A DNA stretch of 64,000 nucleotides from the NCBI GenBank assembly GCA_947476745.1, contig CANJRG010000001.1:457616-521615 (forward strand), written 5' to 3'. Shown piece by piece: positions 24,997-37,475 of the stretch. The notes under the pieces were generated by a model. It was given only the letters and a program-made list of their open reading frames with translations. It had not been told where the DNA came from and did not search any database. Position 1 is the first letter of the stretch; each line of letters opens with the position of its first letter. This DNA is from Acidimicrobiia bacterium. Lineage in GTDB: Bacteria; Actinomycetota; Acidimicrobiia; Acidimicrobiales; CAIXPF01. The translations under genes and the position numbers were made by a program.

Positions 24997-26037
24997 GTGG
25001 CCGTGGCGAGCACCGGCCGGCACAGCACCGGCCGGCACCGACGGTTGGGGGTGGCGGCGGCCTTGGTCGACGGGGTGGTCGTCCCCGGCGACGTCGTGAT
25101 CGACACCGCGACGATCGACGCCGTCGGGGTGTCACCGCCCGGTCGCCGGGGTCTCGCCGTGCCCGGCTGCGTCGACGTGCAGATCAACGGCTTCGCCGGC
25201 GTCGACTTCACCCGGGCCGAGCCCGCGGCGATCGCCGGTGCCCTCACGGCCCTGGCCCGCCACGGGGTGACAGCCTGGGTACCGACACTGCCCACCGCCG
25301 AGACCGGCGCGTACGCCTTGGCGCTGCGGTCCCTGGCCGAGGTCATGAACCGGCCGCCGCTCGGCGCCAAGGCCCTCGGTATCCATCTCGATACCCCGTT
25401 CCTGAACCCGGCCCGGCGCGGCGCCCACCCCGAGGCGTGGCTGCGCGAGCCCGACCCGGCCCTGCTCACCCGCTGGGCGCAGCTCGCGCCCCTGGCCGTG
25501 GTGACGCTGGCCCCCGAACTCGACGGCGCGGCGGGGCTCATCGCCGAGGCCCGGCGTCGGGGCATCGTGGTGTCCCTCGGCCACAGCGAGGCCACCGCAG
25601 CGCAGGCCCACGCCGCCTTCGATGCCGGCGCCTCGATGGTGACCCATCTGTGGAACGCCCAGCCCGCCATCGGATCTCGCCAACCGGGCCTGACGGGCGT
25701 GGCCCTGGCCCGACCCGACGTGGCGGTCGGGCTCATCGCCGATCTCGTCCACGTCGCCCCCGACACCCTGCGCCTGTCGCTCGCCGCCGCCGGGCCGCAG
25801 GCTTTCGTGGTCAGCGACGCCCTCGACGCAGCGGGCACCCCTCCCGGGACACGGCAGAGGGCCGACGACAGCGACCAGCACAACGACGGTATCGCCGTCC
25901 GCCTCGCCGACGGAACGCTGGCCGGCAGTGCCCTCCCTCTCGACAGGGCACTGCGGCCCGGCGATCCGGTCCCACGCCACCCGAGCCGTGCCGGTCAGCG
26001 CTGGCTGTCCACCACCGCCAGCACCTCGTCGCCGTAG
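24997..26037 (+). CDS. nagA: N-acetylglucosamine-6-phosphate deacetylase-like amidohydrolase, apparently 3'-truncated
   Basis: VDVQINGFAG, GIHLDTPFLN, SLGHSEAT, THLWNA, VSDALD and DGTLAGSAL align in order with E. coli NagA. Only about 25 unrelated residues follow GTLAGS, where about 65 are expected. Confidence 0.6.
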   Translation: MAVASTGRHSTGRHRRLGVAAALVDGVVVPGDVVIDTATIDAVGVSPPGRRGLAVPGCVDVQINGFAGVDFTRAEPAAIAGALTALARHGVTAWVPTLPTAETGAYALALRSLAEVMNRPPLGAKALGIHLDTPFLNPARRGAHPEAWLREPDPALLTRWAQLAPLAVVTLAPELDGAAGLIAEARRRGIVVSLGHSEATAAQAHAAFDAGASMVTHLWNAQPAIGSRQPGLTGVALARPDVAVGLIADLVHVAPDTLRLSLAAAGPQAFVVSDALDAAGTPPGTRQRADDSDQHNDGIAVRLADGTLAGSALPLDRALRPGDPVPRHPSRAGQRWLSTTASTSSP

Positions 26038-29000
26038 CGCTCGAGCTTGGTCGGGCCGATGCCATGGCAGTGTGCCAGCAGCGCCAGTGTGGTGGGACGG
26101 CGGCGGGCGATGTCCTCCAACGCCCGGTCGGGAAGCACCAGGTAGGCCGCCACCGCGTCCTTCCGGGCCCGTTCGCGGCGCCACACCTTCAACGCATCGA
26201 CCGTGGCCTGGTGAACCCCGGCGGCCTCGGGCACGGCTCCGCCCCGACCGACGGCCGAGCGCGACGGCGGCCGACCCGCACCGGAGCTGGTGACCGGCCC
26301 ACCGGAGCCCGACGAGGCCCGCAGCTCGGGGGTGGCCGACAACGGCGGTGGCGATCCGGGCGCGTCGAGCTCGACCAGGAACGGGCTCGGCGCAGCGGCA
26401 TCGGCCACCACCACGGTTTGTCGGGACGACCTCGTCAGCCCGACGTGCAACACCCGGCGTTCCTCCTCGATGTCGGTGGCCAACCGGTGTGGCAGTAGAC
26501 CCTCGGAGGCATCGTGGACGATCACGTAGGGCCACTCCCGGCCCTTGACCCGGTGCACCGTGGCGAGCTGCACCCCGTCGGGGCTGGCCTGTCGCCCCGA
26601 CTCGGTCAGCTGCTGGCGCAGCCAGGCCCCGAACCCGGCAGGGTCGGGGTGGAGATGGGCCACCGCCTCGAGCGCCGCGAGGTCGTCGCCATGAGCCGAC
26701 CGGTCGACCGCACCCCGGGACCGGTCCAACGTGTCCATCGCCGCACCCAGACCGAGTTGCTCGGCGACGGCCCGCAACACCGTCGCGGTGTCGGCCCCCT
26801 TCGCCACCAGGGAACCGAGCAGGTCAACGTCGGCGGCGAACGCCTCGACCTTGTCGGCATCCTTCGGTGAACTCAGCCGTGTGGCCAGACGGCGAAGGCC
26901 CTCGAGGCTGCGCTGCTCGTCCATCCACTCCACCAGCCGGGGGGACAGACTGCGCGGCGGTCGTCGGGCAGCATCGGCGATCCAGCCCGGAACGAGCGCG
27001 GCCTCGGACCGGCCACCGGCGGCGGCGAGAGCCAGCCAGGCCAGCGCGGCGCGCACCCCCGAACGGGCCAGCAACGCGGTGTCCACCGGCGCCGTGGTGG
27101 GGATCCCGGCCGCGGCGAGGCGGAGCTGCACCGGTAGCAGGGTGACGTTCACCCGGGTGAGCACCGCCACCTCGCTCGGTGCCGCCCCGTCGTCGAGGAT
27201 CTGTCGGACCACCTCGCAGGTGGTGCCGGGTACATCGCTCACCGGCCGGACCACCAGGTCCTCCGGAGCGGCGGTGCGGCCGGGCGCCGGACGGATGTCC
27301 TTGTTGACCCGCTGACGGTTCCGGGTCAACAGGTTCGACGCCGCCTGCACCACCCCCGGCGGACAGCGGTAGTTGACCTCGAGCGGATGGTCACCGGCCC
27401 CGGGGAACCAACGGTCGAAGCGCACCAGCCAGTCCGGAGAGGCCCCCACGTAGCCGTAGATCGTCTGATCGTCGTCACCGACCCCGAAACAGTCGTACGC
27501 CGGGGACGACAGGAGCCGCACCAGCAGCAGGTGGGCGGGGGCCAGGTCCTGGAACTCGTCGACCAGCAGGACCCGGCAGGCCAGCTGCGCGGTGCGTCGC
27601 GCCGCGGGGTCCTGCAACAGCCGCTCGATGGCGGCGACGATCTGTTCGTCGAAGTCGAGCGCGCCACGACGAGCCAACTCCTCGCGGTAGCGGGGCACGA
27701 CCTCGGCGAGTCCGCCGACATCGCCGCCGAATGCTGCCTCGACCTCGGCTGGGTCGCGCAGGCCGAGGCGGACGGCGGAGAGGGCTTCGAGCCAGGGGGC
27801 CGCCGGGTCGGTCCCGGCGCGACGGCCGAAGCGGACCAACTTCTCCAGGATCCGGCGCACCTCGGTCTCGTCGATGGTCGACAACCGACGCCCGTCGGCC
27901 CGGGCCAGGAACGGACCACCGCCGTTGATGATGGCCAGCCCCAGGCTGTTCAACGTCCGGATGTGCAGGCGAGGCAGGTCCGGGGTGCGGGCCCGCATCT
28001 CCTCTGCGGCCCGTACGTTGAACGCCACCAGCGTGACCAACTCGGCCGGCACCCCTCGGCCCGCCAGCAGCAACCGGGCCCGTTCGGTGAGCACGCGGGT
28101 CTTGCCCGAACCGGCCGGAGCGATGATGCGGGCACCACCACCGGTATGGGCCACCGCGGCGAGCTGATCGGCCGCCAGATCAGCGACCGGATCGACGGCG
28201 GCGAGCGGTTCGAGCCGGCCGATGGCCAGCGCCGCCGCCGGCACCACCACCAGGGAACCCACTGCGTCGTGCGGGGTCAGCGGTCCGCCGTCGATCGCCG
28301 CCGGACGCCCGTCGGCCAGGACCACGTCCACCCCCGGCCGGTCACCCGGCGACGCCCCCAGGGCGACGGCAACCTCTGCCGGGCGGTACCGGGCGCCCAG
28401 CGGGTCGCGGGCGTCAACGGCATGTTGGCCCAGGAGCACGGCCAGGCGTTCGGCCCGGAACTCGAAACCGACCCCCACCGCCCACGGGGCGCGTTCGTCG
28501 CGTTCGGCCGCCCCGAAGGGATCGACCGAACCCGATGACGCATCGAGCTCCACCACGAAACGGCGCCGACCCACCCAGCAGGCCACCAGCTCCTCGAGCG
28601 GTGCGTCGGCGGCGAGCTGGCCCGTTACCCCGAAGGCCAGCCGGAACACCGCAGCCTCGGCCCACGGCCCGGGCGGGGCCACCCCGGCGAGGACCACCAG
28701 CCCTCGGCCGAGCTCGTCGGGCCCGGCCCAGTCGACTGCCGGGCGAGGCAACGGCTCCGTCGACGGGTCGCTGCCCGACAACGGTCGACCCGCGGCTCGA
28801 CCCACCGGTCGACCCACCGGTCGACCCACCGGTCGACCCACCGGTCGACCCGACGCGGCGGCCGGGCCGGCCGGGCCGCGACGCAACGATGCGGCCCGCT
28901 CGGCCCGCCCGCCGGAGGGTGCCCCCGTGCGATCGGGCAACGCCGGCAGGTCGAGGACCGCATCGGCCCATGCGGGTTCCTCGACATCGGCAAAACGATC

Positions 29001-29138
29001 GAGTTCGTCCCACCGGGCCGCATCGGCAGCCCGGTCGTCGTCCCCCACCGGCGTCGACGGCCTCTCGGTGAAGCAGCGCCGCACCTCGGCCGCGCTGGCA
29101 TGTGACGCTCCACAGTTCCCGCAGCTGATCTGGGCCAT
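25995..29138 (-). CDS. UvrD/PcrA-family DNA helicase with about 320-aa N-terminal extension and C-terminal HRDC domain
   Basis: Walker A APAGSGKT, DEFQD (LLVDEFQDLAP), and late motifs VATVHRVKGREW and VGLTRS. HRDC-like tail LKVWRRERARKDAVAAYLVLPDRALEDIA. ATG 29138 (MAQISCGNCG) has an AGGAA RBS. Confidence 0.85.
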   Translation of the reverse strand: MAQISCGNCGASHASAAEVRRCFTERPSTPVGDDDRAADAARWDELDRFADVEEPAWADAVLDLPALPDRTGAPSGGRAERAASLRRGPAGPAAASGRPVGRPVGRPVGRPVGRAAGRPLSGSDPSTEPLPRPAVDWAGPDELGRGLVVLAGVAPPGPWAEAAVFRLAFGVTGQLAADAPLEELVACWVGRRRFVVELDASSGSVDPFGAAERDERAPWAVGVGFEFRAERLAVLLGQHAVDARDPLGARYRPAEVAVALGASPGDRPGVDVVLADGRPAAIDGGPLTPHDAVGSLVVVPAAALAIGRLEPLAAVDPVADLAADQLAAVAHTGGGARIIAPAGSGKTRVLTERARLLLAGRGVPAELVTLVAFNVRAAEEMRARTPDLPRLHIRTLNSLGLAIINGGGPFLARADGRRLSTIDETEVRRILEKLVRFGRRAGTDPAAPWLEALSAVRLGLRDPAEVEAAFGGDVGGLAEVVPRYREELARRGALDFDEQIVAAIERLLQDPAARRTAQLACRVLLVDEFQDLAPAHLLLVRLLSSPAYDCFGVGDDDQTIYGYVGASPDWLVRFDRWFPGAGDHPLEVNYRCPPGVVQAASNLLTRNRQRVNKDIRPAPGRTAAPEDLVVRPVSDVPGTTCEVVRQILDDGAAPSEVAVLTRVNVTLLPVQLRLAAAGIPTTAPVDTALLARSGVRAALAWLALAAAGGRSEAALVPGWIADAARRPPRSLSPRLVEWMDEQRSLEGLRRLATRLSSPKDADKVEAFAADVDLLGSLVAKGADTATVLRAVAEQLGLGAAMDTLDRSRGAVDRSAHGDDLAALEAVAHLHPDPAGFGAWLRQQLTESGRQASPDGVQLATVHRVKGREWPYVIVHDASEGLLPHRLATDIEEERRVLHVGLTRSSRQTVVVADAAAPSPFLVELDAPGSPPPLSATPELRASSGSGGPVTSSGAGRPPSRSAVGRGGAVPEAAGVHQATVDALKVWRRERARKDAVAAYLVLPDRALEDIARRRPTTLALLAHCHGIGPTKLERYGDEVLAVVDSQR
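28797..28852 (-). repeat. 12-bp tandem repeat x4+ (tcgacccaccgg) encoding (GRPV)n in the helicase N-terminal extension
   Basis: Units at 28797-28808, 28809-28820, 28821-28832 and 28833-28844, plus a partial unit. Confidence 0.9.
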
Positions 29139-29265
29139 CGGAAGGTTCCTAGCACGGGGGGTAGGACAGCATCCGCCATGCGCGTGCCGTCGGCCGATGC
29201 GGCGCCCATCCCCACGACAGGGCAAGCCGGTCAACCGCACGACGCCGACAGCCGAAAACCGGTCG

Positions 29266-29688
29266 ATGCCCCCGGAGTTCGGCCCCCACGACACCCTCAG
29301 TCCGACCGAGGCACACGCGTGGCGCATCATCGAACGTCGCCTCCGCATCGACCTTCCGGTCCGCCGCATCGAGCGTCGCGCCCACCTGCGCGCCGACCGA
29401 GTACTCCGCCTGGCGATCCGCTGCGTGCCCGGCGGCCTCCTCCTCGCCTTTCTGGCCTGGTACAGCCCCGAGCTGCTGGTGGCCGTCGGATCCTGTGTCG
29501 CCGTGGCCGGGCTCGTCACGGCGACGGTGCGTGCGGCGGCCCTCGTGCGCCCCGAACGTCTGCACCGTGCCGGTCGCTCCCCGAGCCCTCGGGAACAGCG
29601 TCCACGGAGCGGACCACGTGTCGGCGCAGAGCACAGCCGGGGGTATGACCAGCGACGCGGAAAGCGGCGTCGCTACTGGCACCGCTGA
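29266..29688 (+). CDS. small membrane protein, DUF3040-like
   Basis: LSPTEAHAWRIIERRL resembles the DUF3040 N-terminal helix and is followed by two hydrophobic segments. Divergent from the helicase gene. Confidence 0.4.
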   Translation: MPPEFGPHDTLSPTEAHAWRIIERRLRIDLPVRRIERRAHLRADRVLRLAIRCVPGGLLLAFLAWYSPELLVAVGSCVAVAGLVTATVRAAALVRPERLHRAGRSPSPREQRPRSGPRVGAEHSRGYDQRRGKRRRYWHR

Positions 29689-29695
29689 GCACGCG

Positions 29696-29725
29696 CCGGT
29701 TCCGGTGCCGGTGCCGGTGCCGGTG
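29696..29725. repeat. hexanucleotide repeat (ccggtg/ccggtt) x5
   Basis: Read directly, just downstream of the 29688 stop. Confidence 0.85.
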
Positions 29726-29795: not shown

Positions 29796-30251
29796 ATGGC
29801 GATCAAAGACGTATTCCATGTCAACGTGAACTGCACCGACCTCGACCGGTCCCGCGCCTTCTACGAGAAGGTCGGGTTCAAGGTCGTGACCGAGCTGGGC
29901 GTCGGCGGTTCGCCGAGCATGCTGACCGGGCTCGACCTGCCGGCCGACGGCAAGGCCCGGGCGGTGCTGATGATGCTCGAGCCGGACAAGCCGCGGGGCA
30001 CCCGAATCGACCTGATCGAGTGGATCAACCCACCCACCTCGGGCAGCACCCCGCCGACGCTGAACCACGTCGGCATGGCCCGCATGGCCCTGTGGACGAT
30101 CGGGATCGATGCCGAGTACGAACGGCTGAAGGCGGAGGGCATCGAGTTCATGTCGCCGCCGGTGCAGATGGGCCCGACGGTGCGCTTCTGCTGCTTCCGC
30201 GACCCCGACGGCACGGTGTTGGAGCTGATCGACTTCGGGGGCGGGCGATGA
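29796..30251 (+). CDS. VOC/glyoxalase family protein
   Basis: FHVNVNCTDLDRSRAFYEKVGF and FRDPDGTVLELI are typical of the paired beta-alpha-beta-beta-beta fold. RBS gaaggggg. Confidence 0.85.
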   Translation: MAIKDVFHVNVNCTDLDRSRAFYEKVGFKVVTELGVGGSPSMLTGLDLPADGKARAVLMMLEPDKPRGTRIDLIEWINPPTSGSTPPTLNHVGMARMALWTIGIDAEYERLKAEGIEFMSPPVQMGPTVRFCCFRDPDGTVLELIDFGGGR

Positions 30252-31441: not shown

Positions 31442-31842
31442 GCCATCCCCGTCCTGGCCGACCGTCGGTGGTGACCCGCCCGTTCTGGGAGGCGACCGCC
31501 GAAGGCCGTTTCCTCATCCAACGCTGTGCCGGTTGTGGCACGGCGATCTTCTACCCCCGTCCCGCCTGCCCCCACTGCGGCGGCGGCGAACTGGCCTGGG
31601 AGGCCGCGTCGGGTGCCGCCACCGTGCACACCTTCAGCATCGCCCGCCGGCCCACCCACCCGAAGTTCACCGGTGACGAGCCTTACGTGGTGGCCATCGT
31701 GGAACTGGCGGAGGGCCCGCACGTCACCACCAACATCGTCGAGTGCGATCCCGACGACGTTCAGATCGGTATGGCCGTACAGCTGGTGTTCGACGAGGTC
31801 GGCGACGACGGCTACGCCCTGCCGTTCTTCCGGCCCGCCTGA
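31438..31842 (+). CDS. Zn-ribbon/OB-fold protein (DUF35 family), thiolase partner
   Basis: CAGCGTAIFYPRPACPHCGG zinc ribbon followed by an OB-fold segment. The GTG start overlaps the thiolase-like stop. Confidence 0.85.
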   Translation: MSHPRPGRPSVVTRPFWEATAEGRFLIQRCAGCGTAIFYPRPACPHCGGGELAWEAASGAATVHTFSIARRPTHPKFTGDEPYVVAIVELAEGPHVTTNIVECDPDDVQIGMAVQLVFDEVGDDGYALPFFRPA

Positions 31843-31974
31843 GCCGGCAGCCCGCACCACCCGGACACCACCCGGACAGAACGCACACCCGGTTCGGCCC
31901 GGCAGTCCCCGAGGCTGCCGGGCCGAACTGCGCCTGCAGGCCGTTGCACCCGCCGCCGGGCCGCACGGCGTCGG

Positions 31975-34290
31975 TCAGTAGAACACCACGAGCGTGGCCG
32001 CCACGAGCAGAGTGAGGATGCCCGGCCAGTACAGCAACTCGGGCAGCAGGTTCTTGCGCCAGTGCACGAAACGCCCGCCCCGGCCGGTGCCGAAAACCAG
32101 CGAGTTCACCGCGACCAGCAGCAGCGCCACGTAGAGCACGAAGTAGGCATAGTCCAGGTACACGATCTCGGTGGCGTCGATCGTGCTGCGCAGGTTGTTG
32201 TGGGCGAGGATCGTCACGAACATCAACGCCAGCACCGAGGTGAGCGTCGCCTGCACGTAGTAGTTGCCCCCGGCGGGTTCGGTCACCTCGTCATCGGACC
32301 ACGAGTGGGTCATCGGGTGCTCGGCAGCCCACAGCCTCGCTGCCATTCCCTTGGGCAGCGTCCGGGGTGAGATCACCATCGAGAACTCCGCCGGCCGGGT
32401 GGCCATCAGGTGGACGGTGAACAGCAGCAGCATGATCACGACCAGCTGGATCATCTGCGAGATGAACGGGTCGAGGAACTTTCGCGTCATGTGCACGGTG
32501 AAGGTGAGCTCGGGAAAACCCGACTGACGGGCGAAGTTGGGGATGCCCATGGTCGAGTTGATGCTGGTCGTCGAGTAGCCGAACTCGCTGCCGGTGATCT
32601 CGAAATCGTCCGGCTTGATCCCGGGGGACAGGCCCGGGCGGGCGATGGGGACGATCAGCTCGTACTCTGCCACGTCGGGAACCAGCACGATGGGCCGGGA
32701 GACCTCCCGGTGCGCCAGCCGCAACTGTAGTTCCATGCGGTCGAGCGGGTACGCCCCAAGGTCCCTCTCCGGCTGGACCGTCACCGTGAAGTTCCAGGCG
32801 ATCGTCCTGGTGTCGCCGTCCTGGACGTCGTAGAACGGCTCGAACTGGGGCGTGTCGACCGCATCGGGGAACTCGAAACCCGGCACCTCACCCTCGGGAA
32901 CCCCGTTGGCGTAGCGCTGCCAGATCGTGCCCGACAACCGCCACCCGTCCCCGCTGCTCTGGCCCGGTTCGATGGCCTGCAAGAAGACCCCGGCCAACAC
33001 CGTATGCGGCTTGAGATCGGCCGACACCGACGACACGTAACTGAAGTAGTCGTCGATGGTCTCGCTCAGCTGCTCGAGCCCACCGGCGACCTCGAACTCA
33101 CCGGAGTTCGAGGTATGGACCAGTTCGCTGACGGTGAAATCTGCCGACGAGTCCTTGTGCAACTTCCACGTGACACCGATGGCGACGGCCGGCGTCAACG
33201 TGACGACGAGCACGATCACCCAGATCCGCGCCGTCTCACGCAGGGTGACCAACGCCAGAGCGATGAGTAGGCAGGCGAGGCCGTTGACCGCGGCGAAAAA
33301 GATGCCGAGGTGGTAGTGGAAGGCGGTACGGTCCCCGGCCAGTATCACCTTCTTGATCACCACGAAGCCCAGCACCCAGTCCGCAGTCGGGATCCGGGCG
33401 TAGAACAGCCACGCTGGCTCCCCGGTTATCTCGTCGTGGTAGTCGAACACCGTGTCGGCGTCGGGGTTGGCCGGGTCGAGAATCGCGGTCGCGGCCTCGT
33501 TGCCGTTCTCGGCGGCGACCTCGGCGAAGGTCGGCACGTCCGCGCCGCGCCAGTACGTCTTGATCGGGTGGGTGACGAAGCCACCGTTCTGGTTGGCCGA
33601 GGGATGCGCCGAGTACGAACCACTACGCGAGAGCACGAACCCGTACCCCGAGGCACCGAGCTCGGACCAGCCGACGCTGCGGTTGAGGGTGTCGAGCTGC
33701 ATCGAGATGATGATCGCCCCGGCCGGACCGCCGCCGGGAGGGGCCTCGGGGCCGTAGAAGCGTCCGGTGTAGACCGCGACCATCCGTTTCGTGGTGCCAC
33801 CGAGGTACGGCGGCACCCACGTACTGCCCACCTCCATCGCCCGACGCCACCAGTGGCCCTTGGGTTCGGCCGGATTCTCGTAGTCGTAGGTGATCTTGCC
33901 CGGCTTGATGACGCCGCCGGGCCGGGTGTCGTAATGGTTCGCATCGGCCGGAGCCGTCGGCAGACGGCGGTCGTAAGTGATGCCGACGCCCCACAGGTTG
34001 GGCTGCGCCTGCAGCAGGGCCTGGGTGGCCTTGCCGGCGTTCGACGAGTTGACCTCGCCGCTGTTCAACTGCTCGAGCAGCCGGTTCCCGGCGTCCTGGA
34101 CCCCGTTCAGCAGCTGGTCCACGGACTTCGCGGCGTCCTGAGCCTGGACCCTGGCGCGCTCTTGTGCCTGTTCGACGTAGAGCTTCTCATGATCTCGGGA
34201 AGCCAGGATCAACTGGCCCGCGACCAGAAGTGAGACAACCCCGAACGCGATGAAGAGCAGCACCGCGTAGCGTGCTCTCAGACGCAACAC
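31975..34290 (-). CDS. membrane protein: N-terminal double-Cache sensor fused to a pentameric ligand-gated ion channel (pLGIC)-like module
   Basis: TM1 spans aa 8-28. The Cache-like region (aa 30-320) contains WWRRAMEVGSTWVPPYLGGTTKRMVAVYTGRFY, GAIIISMQLDTL and GYGFVLSRSGSYSAHP. Two TM helices span aa 325-378. The pLGIC-like extracellular domain contains YPLDRMELQLRLAH (compare GLIC YPFDSQTLHIYL) and LTFTVHMTRKF pre-M1. Four C-terminal TM helices follow, with an M2-M3 pattern ATLTSVLALMFVTILAHNNL...YLDYAYFVLYV. Confidence 0.65.
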   Translation of the reverse strand: MLRLRARYAVLLFIAFGVVSLLVAGQLILASRDHEKLYVEQAQERARVQAQDAAKSVDQLLNGVQDAGNRLLEQLNSGEVNSSNAGKATQALLQAQPNLWGVGITYDRRLPTAPADANHYDTRPGGVIKPGKITYDYENPAEPKGHWWRRAMEVGSTWVPPYLGGTTKRMVAVYTGRFYGPEAPPGGGPAGAIIISMQLDTLNRSVGWSELGASGYGFVLSRSGSYSAHPSANQNGGFVTHPIKTYWRGADVPTFAEVAAENGNEAATAILDPANPDADTVFDYHDEITGEPAWLFYARIPTADWVLGFVVIKKVILAGDRTAFHYHLGIFFAAVNGLACLLIALALVTLRETARIWVIVLVVTLTPAVAIGVTWKLHKDSSADFTVSELVHTSNSGEFEVAGGLEQLSETIDDYFSYVSSVSADLKPHTVLAGVFLQAIEPGQSSGDGWRLSGTIWQRYANGVPEGEVPGFEFPDAVDTPQFEPFYDVQDGDTRTIAWNFTVTVQPERDLGAYPLDRMELQLRLAHREVSRPIVLVPDVAEYELIVPIARPGLSPGIKPDDFEITGSEFGYSTTSINSTMGIPNFARQSGFPELTFTVHMTRKFLDPFISQMIQLVVIMLLLFTVHLMATRPAEFSMVISPRTLPKGMAARLWAAEHPMTHSWSDDEVTEPAGGNYYVQATLTSVLALMFVTILAHNNLRSTIDATEIVYLDYAYFVLYVALLLVAVNSLVFGTGRGGRFVHWRKNLLPELLYWPGILTLLVAATLVVFY

Positions 34291-34323
34291 GAACCCGTTA
34301 TCCCCGCAGGATCCGGGCCGTCA

Positions 34324-35205
34324 TCAGGCCGATCGCGCCACGTCGAACAGCCGGCTCCGATCCTCGCCCCGCTCGAACACCAGGACCGGATCGGGGCCCT
34401 GCAGGATCCGCTCGGTCACGCTGCTGAGGGCGAAGCGGGTGAACCCGGTGCGACCCCGCGAGGCGATGATCACCAGATCGACCGGGTGGGTGTCGAGGTG
34501 TTCGACAATGCTGTCGGCGGCGTTGCCGATGACCACGTTGGTGTTGACCTTCAGGCCGGGGAACGCCTCCGCCACCCGGGCGAGGTAGGTGTTGGCCGAC
34601 TCGAGCACGCCGGGCATCAGGTCCGCCCCGACGCCGGTGTCGCCCACGACCATGCCCGAGGTGACCGAAACCGCCTGGATCAGATCGACCTCGGCCCCGA
34701 CGAGGTTCGCCAGATGACGGGCGATCGGCAGCGACTCCTCGGAGAGGTCCGAACCGTCCACCGGCACCAGGATGCGCTTGAGCGAGTAGGTCGCCATGTC
34801 GATGTCGACGTTGGGACCCACCACCAGGCGGGGGCACAGGGCGTTCTTGATCAGCTTGTCCGAGACGCTGCCGAGACGGATCCGCTCGAGGCCGGTGCGG
34901 CCGTGGGTGGCGAGCAGGATCAGGTCGACGTCGGTCTTGCTCGCTGCCTCGAGGATGAGGTCCACCGGGTCGCCCTCGGCGATCACGGTCTCGACCTGCC
35001 AACCTGCGGCGGTGGCGGTGGCGGCGTGCGCCGCCAGGTAGTCGACGAACCCAGCGGCCGTCCGCGTCTTCAGGTTCTTGGGGCTGTCGACGCTGACGAA
35101 ACGCAACTTCGAAAAGCCGATGGTACGCAGCATCGGCAACACGAGCAACGCGTCCTCGGAAGTCTCGTCCCCGTCGAGAGGCAGCAGAACGGTGTAATCC
35201 GACAT
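34324..35205 (-). CDS. universal stress protein, tandem Usp domains
   Basis: Two Usp-like halves, each ending with a G-x2-G-x9-GS type motif (ATHGRTGLERIRLGSVS; ASRGRTGFTRFALSSVT). Confidence 0.85.
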   Translation of the reverse strand: MSDYTVLLPLDGDETSEDALLVLPMLRTIGFSKLRFVSVDSPKNLKTRTAAGFVDYLAAHAATATAAGWQVETVIAEGDPVDLILEAASKTDVDLILLATHGRTGLERIRLGSVSDKLIKNALCPRLVVGPNVDIDMATYSLKRILVPVDGSDLSEESLPIARHLANLVGAEVDLIQAVSVTSGMVVGDTGVGADLMPGVLESANTYLARVAEAFPGLKVNTNVVIGNAADSIVEHLDTHPVDLVIIASRGRTGFTRFALSSVTERILQGPDPVLVFERGEDRSRLFDVARSA

Positions 35206-35345
35206 TGAGGGCTCGTTTCTCTGTAGGCCGATGCCGAACCTTACCGCGGCCCGCGCCCGGCTACATGGCGGCCGGTGACGCCTCCGACCATCCTCGCCAC
35301 CGTCGCCGTGAGTAGTTTGGGCTGGTCACGACCCAGGAGAACGCC

Positions 35346-35759
35346 ATGACCATCGGCCCCGTCGAATACATCCTCGTCGAGTTCCCGGAAAACCGCTTCA
35401 CCGGTGAGATCGTGCCTGCGCTAGCCGAGCTGATCGCCTCGCGGATCGTCCGGCTGATTGACGCGGTGTTCATCACCAAGGACGAGGCGGGCATCGTGCT
35501 CTACGAGGAGTACGACGCCGCGGAGATCGGCGACGGGTTCGGCTTCGCCGACCTCGAGGGCGAGGTCGGATTGTTCAACGAGGAGGACATCGTCATCGCC
35601 GCCGCCTCGTTGGCCCCGAACTCCTCGGCCCTGCTGCTGGTGTGGGAGGACCTGTGGGCCGCCCCGCTGGCCGGCGCCATCCGTCGCGCCGGGGGCCAGC
35701 TGCTCGACGGTGGCCGCATCCCCCACAGCCTCGTCGTCGCCGCGCTCGAGCACGACTGA
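35346..35759 (+). CDS. DUF6325-like small protein
   Basis: GPVEYILVEFPENRFTGEIVPAL and LLLVWEDLWAAP match my recollection of the DUF6325 family, which is often paired with SHOCT proteins. Confidence 0.55.
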   Translation: MTIGPVEYILVEFPENRFTGEIVPALAELIASRIVRLIDAVFITKDEAGIVLYEEYDAAEIGDGFGFADLEGEVGLFNEEDIVIAAASLAPNSSALLLVWEDLWAAPLAGAIRRAGGQLLDGGRIPHSLVVAALEHD

Positions 35760-35775
35760 GCGCCCCACCCCCGCA

Positions 35776-35833
35776 CCGTCAGTTCTGCATCATCCGTCAG
35801 TTCTGCATCATCCGTTACTGCAACATCCGTTCC
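35776..35833. repeat. 18-bp tandem repeat (ccgtcagttctgcatcat x2) plus degenerate third and partial fourth unit
   Basis: Units at 35776-35793 and 35794-35811 are identical. 35812-35826 is ccgttactgcaacat. This is a low-GC island in the spacer upstream of the SHOCT gene. Confidence 0.9.
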
Positions 35834-35853
35834 GAACCGAGGAGAACCTTCCC

Positions 35854-36180
35854 ATGATGAGACGAGGAATCGGCCGAGGCGGCCGCCCCGGCATGCTCGG
35901 CATCGCGGCCCGAACCGCGGTCATCGCCGGTACCGCCACAGCGGTCTCCGGCAGTGTTTCCCGACACCAGCAGGCCAAAGCGGTCCAGAAGTCCGAGGCC
36001 GGCGCCAACGAGCAGGCGCAGCTCCAACAGCAGCAGTCCGTCGCCGCGGCGCCGGTGGCCTCCAACGGCCCGACCGACGAGGACCTCGGGAAGCTGGAGA
36101 AACTCGGCGCCCTGCACGCCCAAGGCATCCTGACCGACGAGGAGTTCACCTCCCAGAAGGCCCAGATCCTGGGGCTCTGA
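35854..36180 (+). CDS. SHOCT domain-containing protein
   Basis: C-terminal LEKLGALHAQGILTDEEFTSQKAQILGL is a canonical SHOCT motif. RBS gaggag lies about 10 nt upstream. Confidence 0.75.
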   Translation: MMRRGIGRGGRPGMLGIAARTAVIAGTATAVSGSVSRHQQAKAVQKSEAGANEQAQLQQQQSVAAAPVASNGPTDEDLGKLEKLGALHAQGILTDEEFTSQKAQILGL

Positions 36181-36272: not shown

Positions 36273-37475
36273 TCAGTCCGGGTGCGTCGCCCCGTAGCGG
36301 GCCGCAACCGGTGCGGCGCTGACGCCGTGCAGCACCACGCTGGCCACCACCGTCATCGTGATGATTCGCACCGTACGGTGCCCGTCGACCGGCGCCAGGT
36401 CGTCGTAGGCGAGCAATCCGAACACCACCGACGCCAGGCCCCGCGGGCCGAACCAGCCGATCACGCCGACCGTGGCCCGGTCGAAGCCCGCGCCGACCAG
36501 CGACAACGCCACGGGGACCAGGCGCACCGCGGTGAGGGCCAGCGCGGCGAAGAGGACCTCCCGCCAGGTGACCTCCTGCAGGATCGGCACCATCACGGCA
36601 CCGAAGATGAACCAGACCACCAACGACATCAGCCCGGCGACACCGTGGGTGAACTCCAGCGACTCCTCCAACCGGTCCGTCGTCACCGCGCCGTAGGCGA
36701 GGCCGGCCACGAAGGCGGCCACGAACCCGTTGCCACCGACGTGCACCACCCCGGCGTAGGCCAACACCGCCAGGGCGGTGGCGCCGAGCTTGCCGTACGC
36801 CGTGCCGCCGAGCCCGTAGGCCCGGGCCATCACCAGCAGCCAGCCCCCGATCGCCCCGATCAGCGCGCCGCCCACTGCTCCGAGCAGCAACTCCTTCAGA
36901 GCCCCGGTCTCCGACACCGACTGCAGCGACGTACCGGCCACCGCAGCGACCAGAAAGAACTTCACGAACGGAGTGGCGATCCCGTCGTTGAGGCCCGACT
37001 CGACGTTGAGCACCCGGCGGATGCGTCGGGGAACCCGGCTGTCCTCGATGATCGGGGCGCCGAGCGCCGCATCAGTCGGGGCGACCGCCGCCCCGATCAC
37101 CGCGCAGACCCACCAGGACAAGCCGGGGAAGATCAACTTTGCAGTGACCGTACCGGCGGCCATGGTCAGCGGCAGCCCGACGAGCAACAGCCGTCCCGGC
37201 AGGGCCGCGTCACGGGCCAGCTCGCGCACGCTGACCCCGGCGGCATCGCCGAAGAGCACGATGGCCAGGGTGAACTCGGCCAGCTCACGGATGCCGGTAG
37301 CGCCGATCCCGACGTGCAACACGCCGGTCGGACCGTTGGCCAGCACCAGGCCGACCCCGACGAGCGCGCTCGCCGCGCTGATGTTCCAGCGTTCGAGACG
37401 ATCGGAGAAGACGCTCCAGAGCACCACTGCCGCGGCGATCGCGCCCACCGCAGCCAGGTTCAGACCGTGTTCCAT
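36273..37475 (-). CDS. cation:proton antiporter (Na+/H+ exchanger family)
   Basis: About 11 hydrophobic segments. GLNDGIATPF and FGPRGLASVVF motifs are typical of CPA1-type exchangers. Confidence 0.85.
   Translation of the reverse strand: MEHGLNLAAVGAIAAAVVLWSVFSDRLERWNISAASALVGVGLVLANGPTGVLHVGIGATGIRELAEFTLAIVLFGDAAGVSVRELARDAALPGRLLLVGLPLTMAAGTVTAKLIFPGLSWWVCAVIGAAVAPTDAALGAPIIEDSRVPRRIRRVLNVESGLNDGIATPFVKFFLVAAVAGTSLQSVSETGALKELLLGAVGGALIGAIGGWLLVMARAYGLGGTAYGKLGATALAVLAYAGVVHVGGNGFVAAFVAGLAYGAVTTDRLEESLEFTHGVAGLMSLVVWFIFGAVMVPILQEVTWREVLFAALALTAVRLVPVALSLVGAGFDRATVGVIGWFGPRGLASVVFGLLAYDDLAPVDGHRTVRIITMTVVASVVLHGVSAAPVAARYGATHPD

Follow-up and report, generated by a model that had tools for sequence, protein, structure and literature searches.

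Pentameric ligand-gated ion channels, or pLGICs, serve as the receptors for acetylcholine, gamma-aminobutyric acid (GABA), glycine, and serotonin, and the bacterial members GLIC, ELIC, sTeLIC, and DeCLIC are the main structural models of how they gate. Cache is the most common extracellular sensor of bacteria. Here we report on a gene whose product joins a Cache sensor to a predicted pLGIC subunit. It is an open reading frame (ORF) in a 64,000-nucleotide stretch of an Acidimicrobiia genome (contig CANJRG010000001.1 of assembly GCA_947476745.1, positions 457,616 to 521,615), and we refer to this whole stretch as the window. An earlier reading of the same letters by a model, which we call the original prediction, had proposed such a fusion for the ORF at 31975-34290; we found the ORF there, with every peptide that had been quoted from it.

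Fusions of this kind have been described before. Tasneem, Iyer, Jakobsson & Aravind (2004, Genome Biol 6:R4, PMC549065) reported MCP-N + Cache + ART-LGIC fusions in Methanosarcina, Cytophaga, and Microbulbifer. They predicted, purely in silico, that these proteins form homopentameric chemoreceptor channels, and noted that some of the genes lie near those for solute-binding proteins or Na+/H+ transporters (PMC549065). The extra domains were said to follow the signal peptide and precede the ligand-binding domain; a transmembrane (TM) hairpin is not mentioned there (PMC549065). The statement in the original prediction that comparative genomics had already noticed prokaryotic pLGICs with extra domains is thus accurate, the published account being an in silico one (PMC549065). 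In the literature that we searched, no other paper combines pLGICs with Cache, no paper gives a structure or function for a Cache-fused pLGIC, and no M1-M2 insertion is described in a prokaryotic pLGIC; the main text of Jaiteh et al. (2016) mentions neither N-terminal domains nor Cache. Among the N-terminal domains of pLGICs, that of DeCLIC was stated, as of 2025, to be the sole one characterized even in part (PMC9897478, PMC12664993).

Like the Cache-LGICs of 2004, the window protein has a double-Cache domain (MCP-N + Cache in the older naming) N-terminal to a full pLGIC core. Unlike them, it is actinobacterial (Acidimicrobiia-like), has an insertion of 47 residues between M1 and M2, and has Gln at the position of the M1 proline. 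The 2004 proteins probably belong to the same family, in which we place them by architecture and taxonomy rather than by direct alignment. The fusion of Cache and pLGIC is therefore not new, since it is of a kind predicted in silico in 2004; what is worth experiment is the insertion that this clade alone has at the pore mouth, the M1 proline loss that accompanies it, and the explicit topology of seven TM helices. We consider it probable that the window protein is a functional ligand-gated channel subunit built from a Cache sensor, a hairpin, and a pLGIC core.

Read from the sequence, the chain begins with TM1 and a periplasmic dCache_1 domain; the TM2-TM3 hairpin comes next, and the beta-sandwich of a pLGIC extracellular domain then leads to M1-M4. 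The Kyte-Doolittle profile has seven hydrophobic peaks (residues 10-28, 330-348, 356-374, 607-631, 678-696, 712-733, and 750-770), and the charge counts fit the proposed 1+2+4 arrangement of TM helices with the Cache domain in between. Lys plus Arg against Asp plus Glu amount to 3 and 0 at the N-terminus, 2 and 1 in the TM2-TM3 turn, and 4 and 0 in the M3-M4 loop, and both large hydrophilic domains are net acidic (16 and 34 in the second extracytoplasmic domain). This pattern fits the positive-inside rule with the N-terminus in the cytoplasm, and it likely places the extracellular domain outside the cytoplasm, where a pLGIC would have it, in keeping with the periplasmic nature of Cache; nothing in the hydropathy or charge counts put that domain inside. 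A second extracytoplasmic domain is present as proposed, but the segment from TM3 to M1 measures 231 residues instead of about 200, and some 30 of them (375-404) are linker. The 1+2+4 layout is the norm of the family, with 7 peaks in 75 of 125 sequences and 6 in most of the others, and W357 and P367 of the hairpin are invariant across the close clade. The distant family member P0083 has a Peripla_BP_6 domain after M4, which fits an extracellular C-terminus. The window protein has no cytoplasmic output or signaling domain, which supports the channel itself as the output.

Curated models did not recognize the channel half. Neither Neur_chan_LBD (PF02931) nor Neur_chan_memb (PF02932) gave a match at E <= 10, whether in the window protein or in the relatives scanned (8 close and 10 distant). 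Pfam and NCBIfam scans gave no channel-domain match for the window protein, and the channel half found no match in the PDB either with the single sequence (phmmer) or with a 9-sequence profile. These misses are a matter of the limited sensitivity of curated models and shallow profiles, not of a lack of homology. When we searched the PDB by hmmsearch with a profile built from 39 diverse sequences aligned over the C-terminal module, all 60 matches listed, of 75 at E <= 10, were GLIC or GLIC chimeras, and the best of them (E 7.2e-4) aligned from the Pro-loop through M3. By hhalign, the module matched a reference profile of 41 genuine pLGICs, every one of which carries PF02931, at 98.35% (E 1.1e-14) over 280 columns that correspond to GLIC residues 12-317, and thus to the extracellular domain and M1-M4. 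Against GLIC alone (a sequence identical to 2xq3_A), the values were 97.2% and E 3.5e-11 over GLIC residues 11-205, the whole extracellular domain. The profile homology therefore runs the full length of a pLGIC subunit, and residues 425-771, on which the original prediction had staked its pLGIC assignment, have significant pLGIC matches.

The predicted structure points the same way. An AlphaFold2 model of residues 405-771, made with the 39-sequence alignment, has a predicted local distance difference test score (pLDDT) of 87.5 and a predicted TM-score (pTM) of 0.79, and begins with one helix, continues with ten strands, and ends with four long helices, the fold of a pLGIC subunit. It replaced a first model from the 9-sequence alignment, which had a pLDDT of 58 and found pLGICs by Foldseek at TM-scores of 0.35-0.48. 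With the newer model, the best 50 of 1029 Foldseek matches (E <= 1e-3) were all pLGIC chains, with E of about 1e-12 and alignments that cover the whole target chains. TM-scores normalized to the target were 0.63-0.70 for GLIC, 0.66-0.68 for ELIC, 0.70 for sTeLIC, and 0.54-0.67 for glycine (GlyR) and GABA-A receptors; individual matches include GLIC 6f0j_A (E 1e-12, TM-score 0.69), ELIC 8twv_A (0.68), and sTeLIC 9ex6_A (0.70). DeCLIC was absent among these 50 best matches. The Foldseek comparison that had been suggested as a check, done here with a monomer model, thus returned pLGICs alone among the 50 best matches listed, at TM-scores of 0.54-0.70.

The sequence motifs of pLGICs are also present. 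A Pro-loop of the form [FY]-P-x-D lies between beta6 and beta7, as in pLGICs; its Pro is found in 128 of 128 relatives, its Asp in 116, and its first residue is Tyr in 111 and Phe in 17. The pre-M1 position is occupied by Arg in 116 of the 128 and by Lys in 9, again as expected of pLGICs. Computed alignments bear out those made by hand in the original prediction, at M1 and the pre-M1 Arg as well as at the YPLD loop. Family-specific motifs occur as well (WQ[KR]Y, LVPD..[SAE]Y....P...PGL, H..LR, and YLEY.YF), and the extracellular domain has about 9 residues more than that of GLIC.

Could the resemblance be a coincidence between a generic beta-sandwich followed by four helices and a pLGIC, or could the long loop be an artifact of assembly, frameshift, or gene fusion? 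The empty Pfam and NCBIfam channel scans and the poor first model from a shallow alignment (pLDDT 58) are what such an explanation would lead one to expect. Against it, profile-profile comparison, the PDB profile search (60 matches listed), and Foldseek (50 listed) all point to pLGICs alone, and the motifs agree at the Pro-loop, the pre-M1 Arg, and the M1 Pro of the family. The same architecture recurs in hundreds of clusters, and the length of the insertion is kept in 7 orthologues from separate assemblies. In addition, near-identical copies of the gene are found in more than 20 freshwater or lake metagenomes from at least 8 studies, so it is no artifact of assembly. We regard this explanation as effectively refuted. 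The profile-profile, PDB profile, and structure tests, which we treat as independent, agree, and we take their agreement as decisive for the prediction that the C-terminal half is a pLGIC subunit.

The subunit fold over the whole chain (TM-score 0.63-0.70) is common to the window protein and GLIC, ELIC, and sTeLIC, as are a Pro-loop (Y-P-F/L-D), an Arg before M1, the four TM helices, and the shortness of the M3-M4 loop. Those channels differ from it in having no N-terminal sensor, no extra TM helices, and an M1-M2 loop of about 5 residues, and identity to them is 12-15%. Like DeCLIC (from Desulfofustis), a prokaryotic pLGIC, it devotes about half of its mass to a large accessory domain in the periplasm. 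In DeCLIC, however, the N-terminal domain is a pair of jelly-roll lobes that connect within the periplasm to the extracellular domain, with no TM helix between, whereas the accessory domain of the window protein is a dCache_1 domain with TM anchors of its own and two TM helices before the extracellular domain, so that the protein is not of the DeCLIC type.

The N-terminal half is a double-Cache sensor. The single sequence matched Pfam dCache_1 with E 3.5e-5 and 23.9 bits, under the 45-bit cut-off, and reached Cache domains of chemoreceptors in the PDB with E of about 0.01 (phmmer). The profile scan by which the original prediction was to be checked thus gave a subthreshold dCache_1 match (23.9 against 45 bits) and none to Neur_chan_LBD or Neur_chan_memb. 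With a profile made from a 40-sequence full-length family alignment, the match to 3li8_A, the sensor of a Methanosarcina mazei histidine kinase, has E 6.9e-30 and spans residues 8-284 of 291, which bears out the Cache-like domain that had been proposed and amounts to homology over a full-length double PDC. The same profile found 3lib (E of about 1e-28), PctA and PctB (about 4e-16), 3lic, and PctC, and, more weakly, the Cache domains of calcium-channel alpha2-delta. Relatives, P0016 and P0018 among them, clear the Pfam cut-offs for dCache_1 or MCP-like_PDC_1. TM1 (10-28) and TM2 (330-348) bracket the domain, as they do across the family. In this respect the protein resembles dCache_1 chemoreceptors and histidine kinases (3li8/3lib, PctA/B/C, Mlp24/37, and Tlp3), which also hold a full-length double PDC between TM helices; it differs from them in that its output is a channel module in place of HAMP/MCP, a kinase, or a cyclase.

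The dCache_1AA motif for amino acids, reportedly defined by Gumerov et al. in 2022, comprises Y121, R126, W128, Y144, and D173 in PctA numbering. We checked these positions against the PctB sequence and found the window equivalents to be Y137, G145, W147, Y162, and S196, in a region where the alignment is weak. The Arg and the Asp of the motif, which contact the ligand's carboxyl and amino groups, occur together in 0 of 128 relatives, again with the weak alignment of this region, whereas the pocket aromatics (the equivalents of PctA Y121, W128, and Y144) are kept in most family members. An alpha-amino acid, tried as a candidate Cache ligand, was rejected on this motif, the equivalents of R126 and D173 being Gly145 and Ser196. 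Since the Arg/Asp pair is absent, an alpha-amino-acid ligand is unlikely, and from these alignments we would exclude one with moderate confidence.

The sensor need not be what opens the pore. Cache might only modulate the channel, or serve as a dock for a solute-binding protein, with gating by pH, ions, or a ligand of the extracellular domain, an arrangement that overlaps with the one we prefer. Several parallels speak for it. GLIC and sTeLIC are gated by pH, the linker between TM3 and the extracellular domain is long and variable, and genes or domains for solute-binding proteins adjoin or are fused to the channel in 3 of 8 sampled relatives, as Tasneem et al. also found (PMC549065). The N-terminal domain of DeCLIC modulates kinetics and is not the agonist site (PMC9897478, PMC12664993). 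Set against these parallels, dCache_1 domains bind ligands in essentially all receptors studied, the retained pocket aromatics fit a binding site, and no solute-binding-protein gene adjoins the window gene. On balance we find a purely modulatory or docking role doubtful, and we continue with Cache as a ligand-binding sensor of the channel.

The cytoplasmic segment between M1 and M2 sets the window protein apart from most of its relatives. The linker between M1 and M2 of pLGICs has about 5 residues, which form the cytoplasmic selectivity filter. Measured between the same anchors, the interval has 12 residues in 89 of the 128 full-length members, and lengths of 47-48 are confined to the window clade (7 sequences). 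The long segment that the original prediction had noticed is thus real, at 47 residues, and is a property of one small clade, not of the family as a whole, as the proposed homolog survey brought out (47-48 residues in 7 of 128, 12 in 89 of 128). Even the usual 12-residue loop exceeds the approximately 5 residues of GLIC, so that the family does not have the short linker typical of pLGICs. The segment is treated as an insert by hhalign relative to both profiles. It is made up of two blocks, of about 14 and about 21 residues, that flank a conserved R-x-x-W; its N-terminal half is basic with a conserved P-x-G-M-x-x-R-L-W, and its tail is acidic. In the model it forms two short helices with a pLDDT of about 60. 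Pairwise identity within the clade is 53% in the insertion, whose length is kept, 69% in the extracellular domain, and 81% in M2-M4. The clade comprises Acidimicrobiia and Thermoleophilia metagenome-assembled genomes, and the sister sequences, from Chloroflexota, have no insertion. P0008-P0010 are close orthologues without the insertion, and in these the linker from TM3 to the extracellular domain is 17 residues shorter.

The M1 helix of the clade is also altered. In studied pLGICs, the M1 proline matters for gating. The equivalent position, which aligns to the M1 Pro of GLIC and is Pro in 116 of the 128 relatives, is Gln615 in the window protein (32446-32448), which therefore does not have the conserved M1 proline. 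Of the 7 sequences with the insertion, 5 have Gln or Val in place of the proline and two have kept it; insertion and proline loss thus tend to co-occur.

The near-invariant residues of M2 are F691, H697, L700, and R701. From column composition, the conserved Leu689 falls at 9' (register A); from the end of the model helix and the C-terminal segment of the hhalign alignment, R701 falls at 19' and Phe691 at 9' (register B). The register used in the original prediction is plausible. Because the register is ambiguous, we make no prediction of ion selectivity.

These features invite the suggestion that the clade has kept the pLGIC fold and lost conduction, so that the protein would be a sensor, an anchor, or a closed pseudo-channel in which the insertion plugs the mouth and the loss of the proline disables gating. 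The exchange to Gln615 at a position where GLIC and 116 of 128 relatives have Pro, its counterpart in 5 of the 7 insertion-bearing sequences, the location of the insertion where studied pLGICs have their selectivity filter and cytoplasmic mouth, and the lack of a recognizable charged selectivity ring in the column composition of M2 would all suit such a loss. However, no part of the protein is better conserved in the clade than M2-M4 (81%, compared to 69% and 53%), which fits ongoing selection on a pore. The near-invariant F691, H697, L700, and R701 are retained, two insertion-bearing orthologues still have the M1 proline, and the protein has no alternative output domain. A nonconducting clade is, on this evidence, distinctly improbable, and a conducting channel remains our preferred reading.

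The insertion might be a true intracellular domain. In eukaryotic Cys-loop receptors, the M3-M4 domain (MX/MA helices) has lateral portals through which it influences conductance, and it also binds regulators. The window insertion resembles it as a cytoplasmic appendage predicted to be present in five copies at the inner pore mouth. The analogy is purely one of function; the insertion lies between M1 and M2, and we claim no homology. We know of no studied pLGIC with an intracellular domain between M1 and M2, nor of a route of allostery from a hairpin to M4/M1 in the pLGIC superfamily. We put forward tentatively, as a possibility that we think unlikely to hold in full, that the insertion sets selectivity or conductance through a charged ring (basic, then acidic) or allows gating by a cytoplasmic signal, which would relax the need for the M1 proline, and that, separately, the TM2-TM3 hairpin takes the signal of the Cache domain across the membrane to the surface of M4/M1 that faces the lipid. 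Intracellular domains of substantial size are typically absent from prokaryotic pLGICs (PMC12664993).

In the mechanism that we favor, five subunits would assemble as a homopentamer round a pore lined by M2, with 35 TM helices in total. A small molecule in the periplasm, other than an alpha-amino acid, would bind the membrane-distal Cache pocket, an inter-subunit site of the extracellular domain, or both. Binding would move the interface of the Pro-loop, pre-M1 segment, and M2-M3 loop and open the pore, and the output would be an ion flux that alters the membrane potential or ion balance. Coupling between Cache and channel would probably be lateral, with Cache touching the rim of the extracellular domain and the hairpin in contact with M4/M1/M3. 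The linker of 30 residues, being variable and disordered, is unlikely to carry the signal. In the window clade, five insertions of 47 residues, basic and then acidic, would lie at the cytoplasmic mouth of the pore. The likeliest arrangement there is a small intracellular vestibule, which would tune the access of ions, selectivity, or gating.

Several points weigh against this mechanism. We infer pentamer formation, conduction, ion selectivity, and ligand alike, and the class has so far been described in silico only. The Neur_chan models miss the family, so its divergence from studied channels is large, with 12-15% identity in structural alignments. The assignment of the Cache pocket relies on weak alignments, and the window protein has Gln615 in place of the conserved M1 proline. 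The insertion is modeled at low confidence (pLDDT of about 60) and could occlude the pore instead of forming a vestibule. The two M2 registers conflict by two residues, hhalign needs gaps within M2, and the models are of monomers. At the cytoplasmic end of M2, neither selectivity signature (Glu at -1'/-2' for cations; Pro-Ala-Arg for anions) could be assigned.

The family is large. An exhaustive HMMER search with the 9-sequence profile found 1517 representatives (clustered at 50% identity) at E <= 1e-3 and 832 at E <= 1e-30. Most members have about 700 residues, a Cytophagaceae protein is among them, and public records name them "hypothetical protein" or "cache domain-containing protein". The Cache-fused pLGICs thus form a class of at least 1,500 clusters at 50% identity whose channel half is invisible to standard annotation. 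Because they link a Cache sensor to a pore of the neurotransmitter-receptor type through two extra TM helices per subunit, they could show how an accessory sensor modulates a pLGIC. The window clade is a natural experiment at the pore mouth, with the insertion-free orthologues P0008-P0010 as built-in controls. If our reading is true, abundant freshwater Actinomycetota have a system of ligand-gated ion flux.

Fragments of the gene were seen in four freshwater metatranscriptomes, in which DNA carry-over in the libraries is possible. An RNA contig (34149-34412; run X24, 10 mismatches) spans the stop codon of an upstream gene for a tandem universal stress protein (Usp) and the start of the channel gene, which suggests that the two are cotranscribed, with the same proviso of DNA carry-over. 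A scan of 31700-35500 found no promoter or terminator. The guanine-plus-cytosine (GC) content of the window is about 70-75%, with a dip to 65-67% at 32001-36000, and that of the channel ORF itself is 65.4%.

The neighborhood of the gene offers little that recurs (Table 1). The Usp gene also adjoins the channel gene in the 66%-identical relative L008 and does not in P0004 or P0010, and because it is found beside close relatives only, it supports no functional inference. The gene order of the window is common to this 66%-identical relative, and the other sampled relatives differ, which indicates shared ancestry and not a functional module. We considered and rejected a conserved operon partner, given that Usp stands only beside close relatives and that five further contexts share only occasional solute-binding proteins; no partner gene is conserved across the family in the contexts of the sampled relatives. 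A genome-contig scan with narrow patterns found 7 loci, enough for placing the clade (Acidimicrobiia, Thermoleophilia, and Chloroflexota) but not a census. A cluster of thiolase, ChsH2, and glyoxalase genes converges on the channel gene from the downstream side. A Na+/H+ exchanger gene lies upstream and does not form one operon with the channel gene, since two plus-strand genes and Usp intervene; in Microbulbifer, a Na+/H+ transporter gene is in an operon with the Cache-LGIC (Tasneem et al. 2004, PMC549065). Between the DUF6325 and SHOCT genes (35776-35831) we observed perfect 18-bp and imperfect 15-bp direct repeats.

The sole recurring theme of the contexts is a solute-binding protein, adjoining or fused in 3 of the 8 sampled relatives (P0010, P0025, and P0083), and this could reflect a functional partnership that recurs. 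No such gene stands next to the channel gene in the window. N-terminal fusions of PBP-I domains were described in 2004 (PMC549065), and the PBP-I-type domain of P0083 is at the opposite, C-terminal end. A HAMP-guanylate cyclase gene converges on the P0083 gene from downstream.

Table 1. Features of the channel gene and its surroundings, by position in the window or, where a locus is named, on the contig of a relative
Feature	Position	Strand	Basis or remarks
Whole ORF, subunit of Cache-fused pLGIC	31975-34290	minus	771 residues plus stop; GTG start
TM1 (residues 10-28)	34207-34263	minus	Hydropathy, charge counts; N-terminus predicted inside, three Arg before it
Periplasmic double-Cache (dCache_1) sensor (residues ~35-322)	33325-34188	minus	Pfam, family profile
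TM2-TM3 hairpin (residues 327-374)	33169-33312	minus	Hydropathy; cytoplasmic turn TLRETAR; brings the chain back to the periplasm
Variable linker, TM3 to extracellular domain (residues 375-404)	33079-33168	minus	pLDDT 28-37 in first model
pLGIC extracellular domain (residues 405-605)	32476-33078	minus	N-terminal helix, then 10-strand beta-sandwich; model pLDDT mostly 82-98, hhalign, Foldseek
Pro-loop Y514-P515-L516-D517, Cys-loop counterpart	32740-32751	minus	Aligned to GLIC Y119-P120-F121-D122
Pre-M1 arginine R603	32482-32484	minus	Aligned to GLIC R192
M1 (residues 606-631)	32398-32475	minus	Model helix
Cytoplasmic M1-M2 insertion (residues 632-678, 47 residues)	32257-32397	minus	Basic N-half RPAEFSMVISPRTLPKGMAARLW, acidic C-half SWSDDEVTEP...NYY
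M2, presumed pore-lining helix (residues 679-703)	32182-32256	minus	Column composition; model helix 675-703
M3 (residues 711-735)	32086-32160	minus	Model; family motif Y-L-[ED]-Y-x-Y-F
M4 (residues 748-771)	31978-32049	minus	Model; short basic M3-M4 loop GRGGRFVHWRKN before it; C-terminus predicted outside the cell
Tandem-Usp gene	34324-35205	minus	Pfam Usp E 3e-39, two domains; 33 bp upstream of channel gene
DUF6325 gene	35346-35759	plus	
SHOCT-domain gene	35839-36180	plus	
Na+/H+ exchanger gene	36273-37475	minus	PF00999, E 5e-34; ~2 kb upstream of channel gene
SBP_bac_3 gene	L010 8357-9433		Downstream of P0010
SBP_bac_5 gene	L012 3253-4950		50 bp upstream of P0025
P0083 (1159 residues), with Peripla_BP_6 (PBP-I type) domain fused C-terminally after M4	L013 5001-8480		Distant family member

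Two repeats were seen farther from the channel gene. The minus-strand ORF at 25995-29519 (1174 residues), whose translation has UvrD-like helicase motifs (APAGSGKT and VDEFQD), contains at 28782-28851 a 12-bp tandem repeat, CGGTCGACCCAC, in 5.8 copies that code for (GRPV)n. A hexamer repeat, (GCCGGT) x 5.2, lies at 29695-29725, just upstream of a glyoxalase-family gene (29796-30251).

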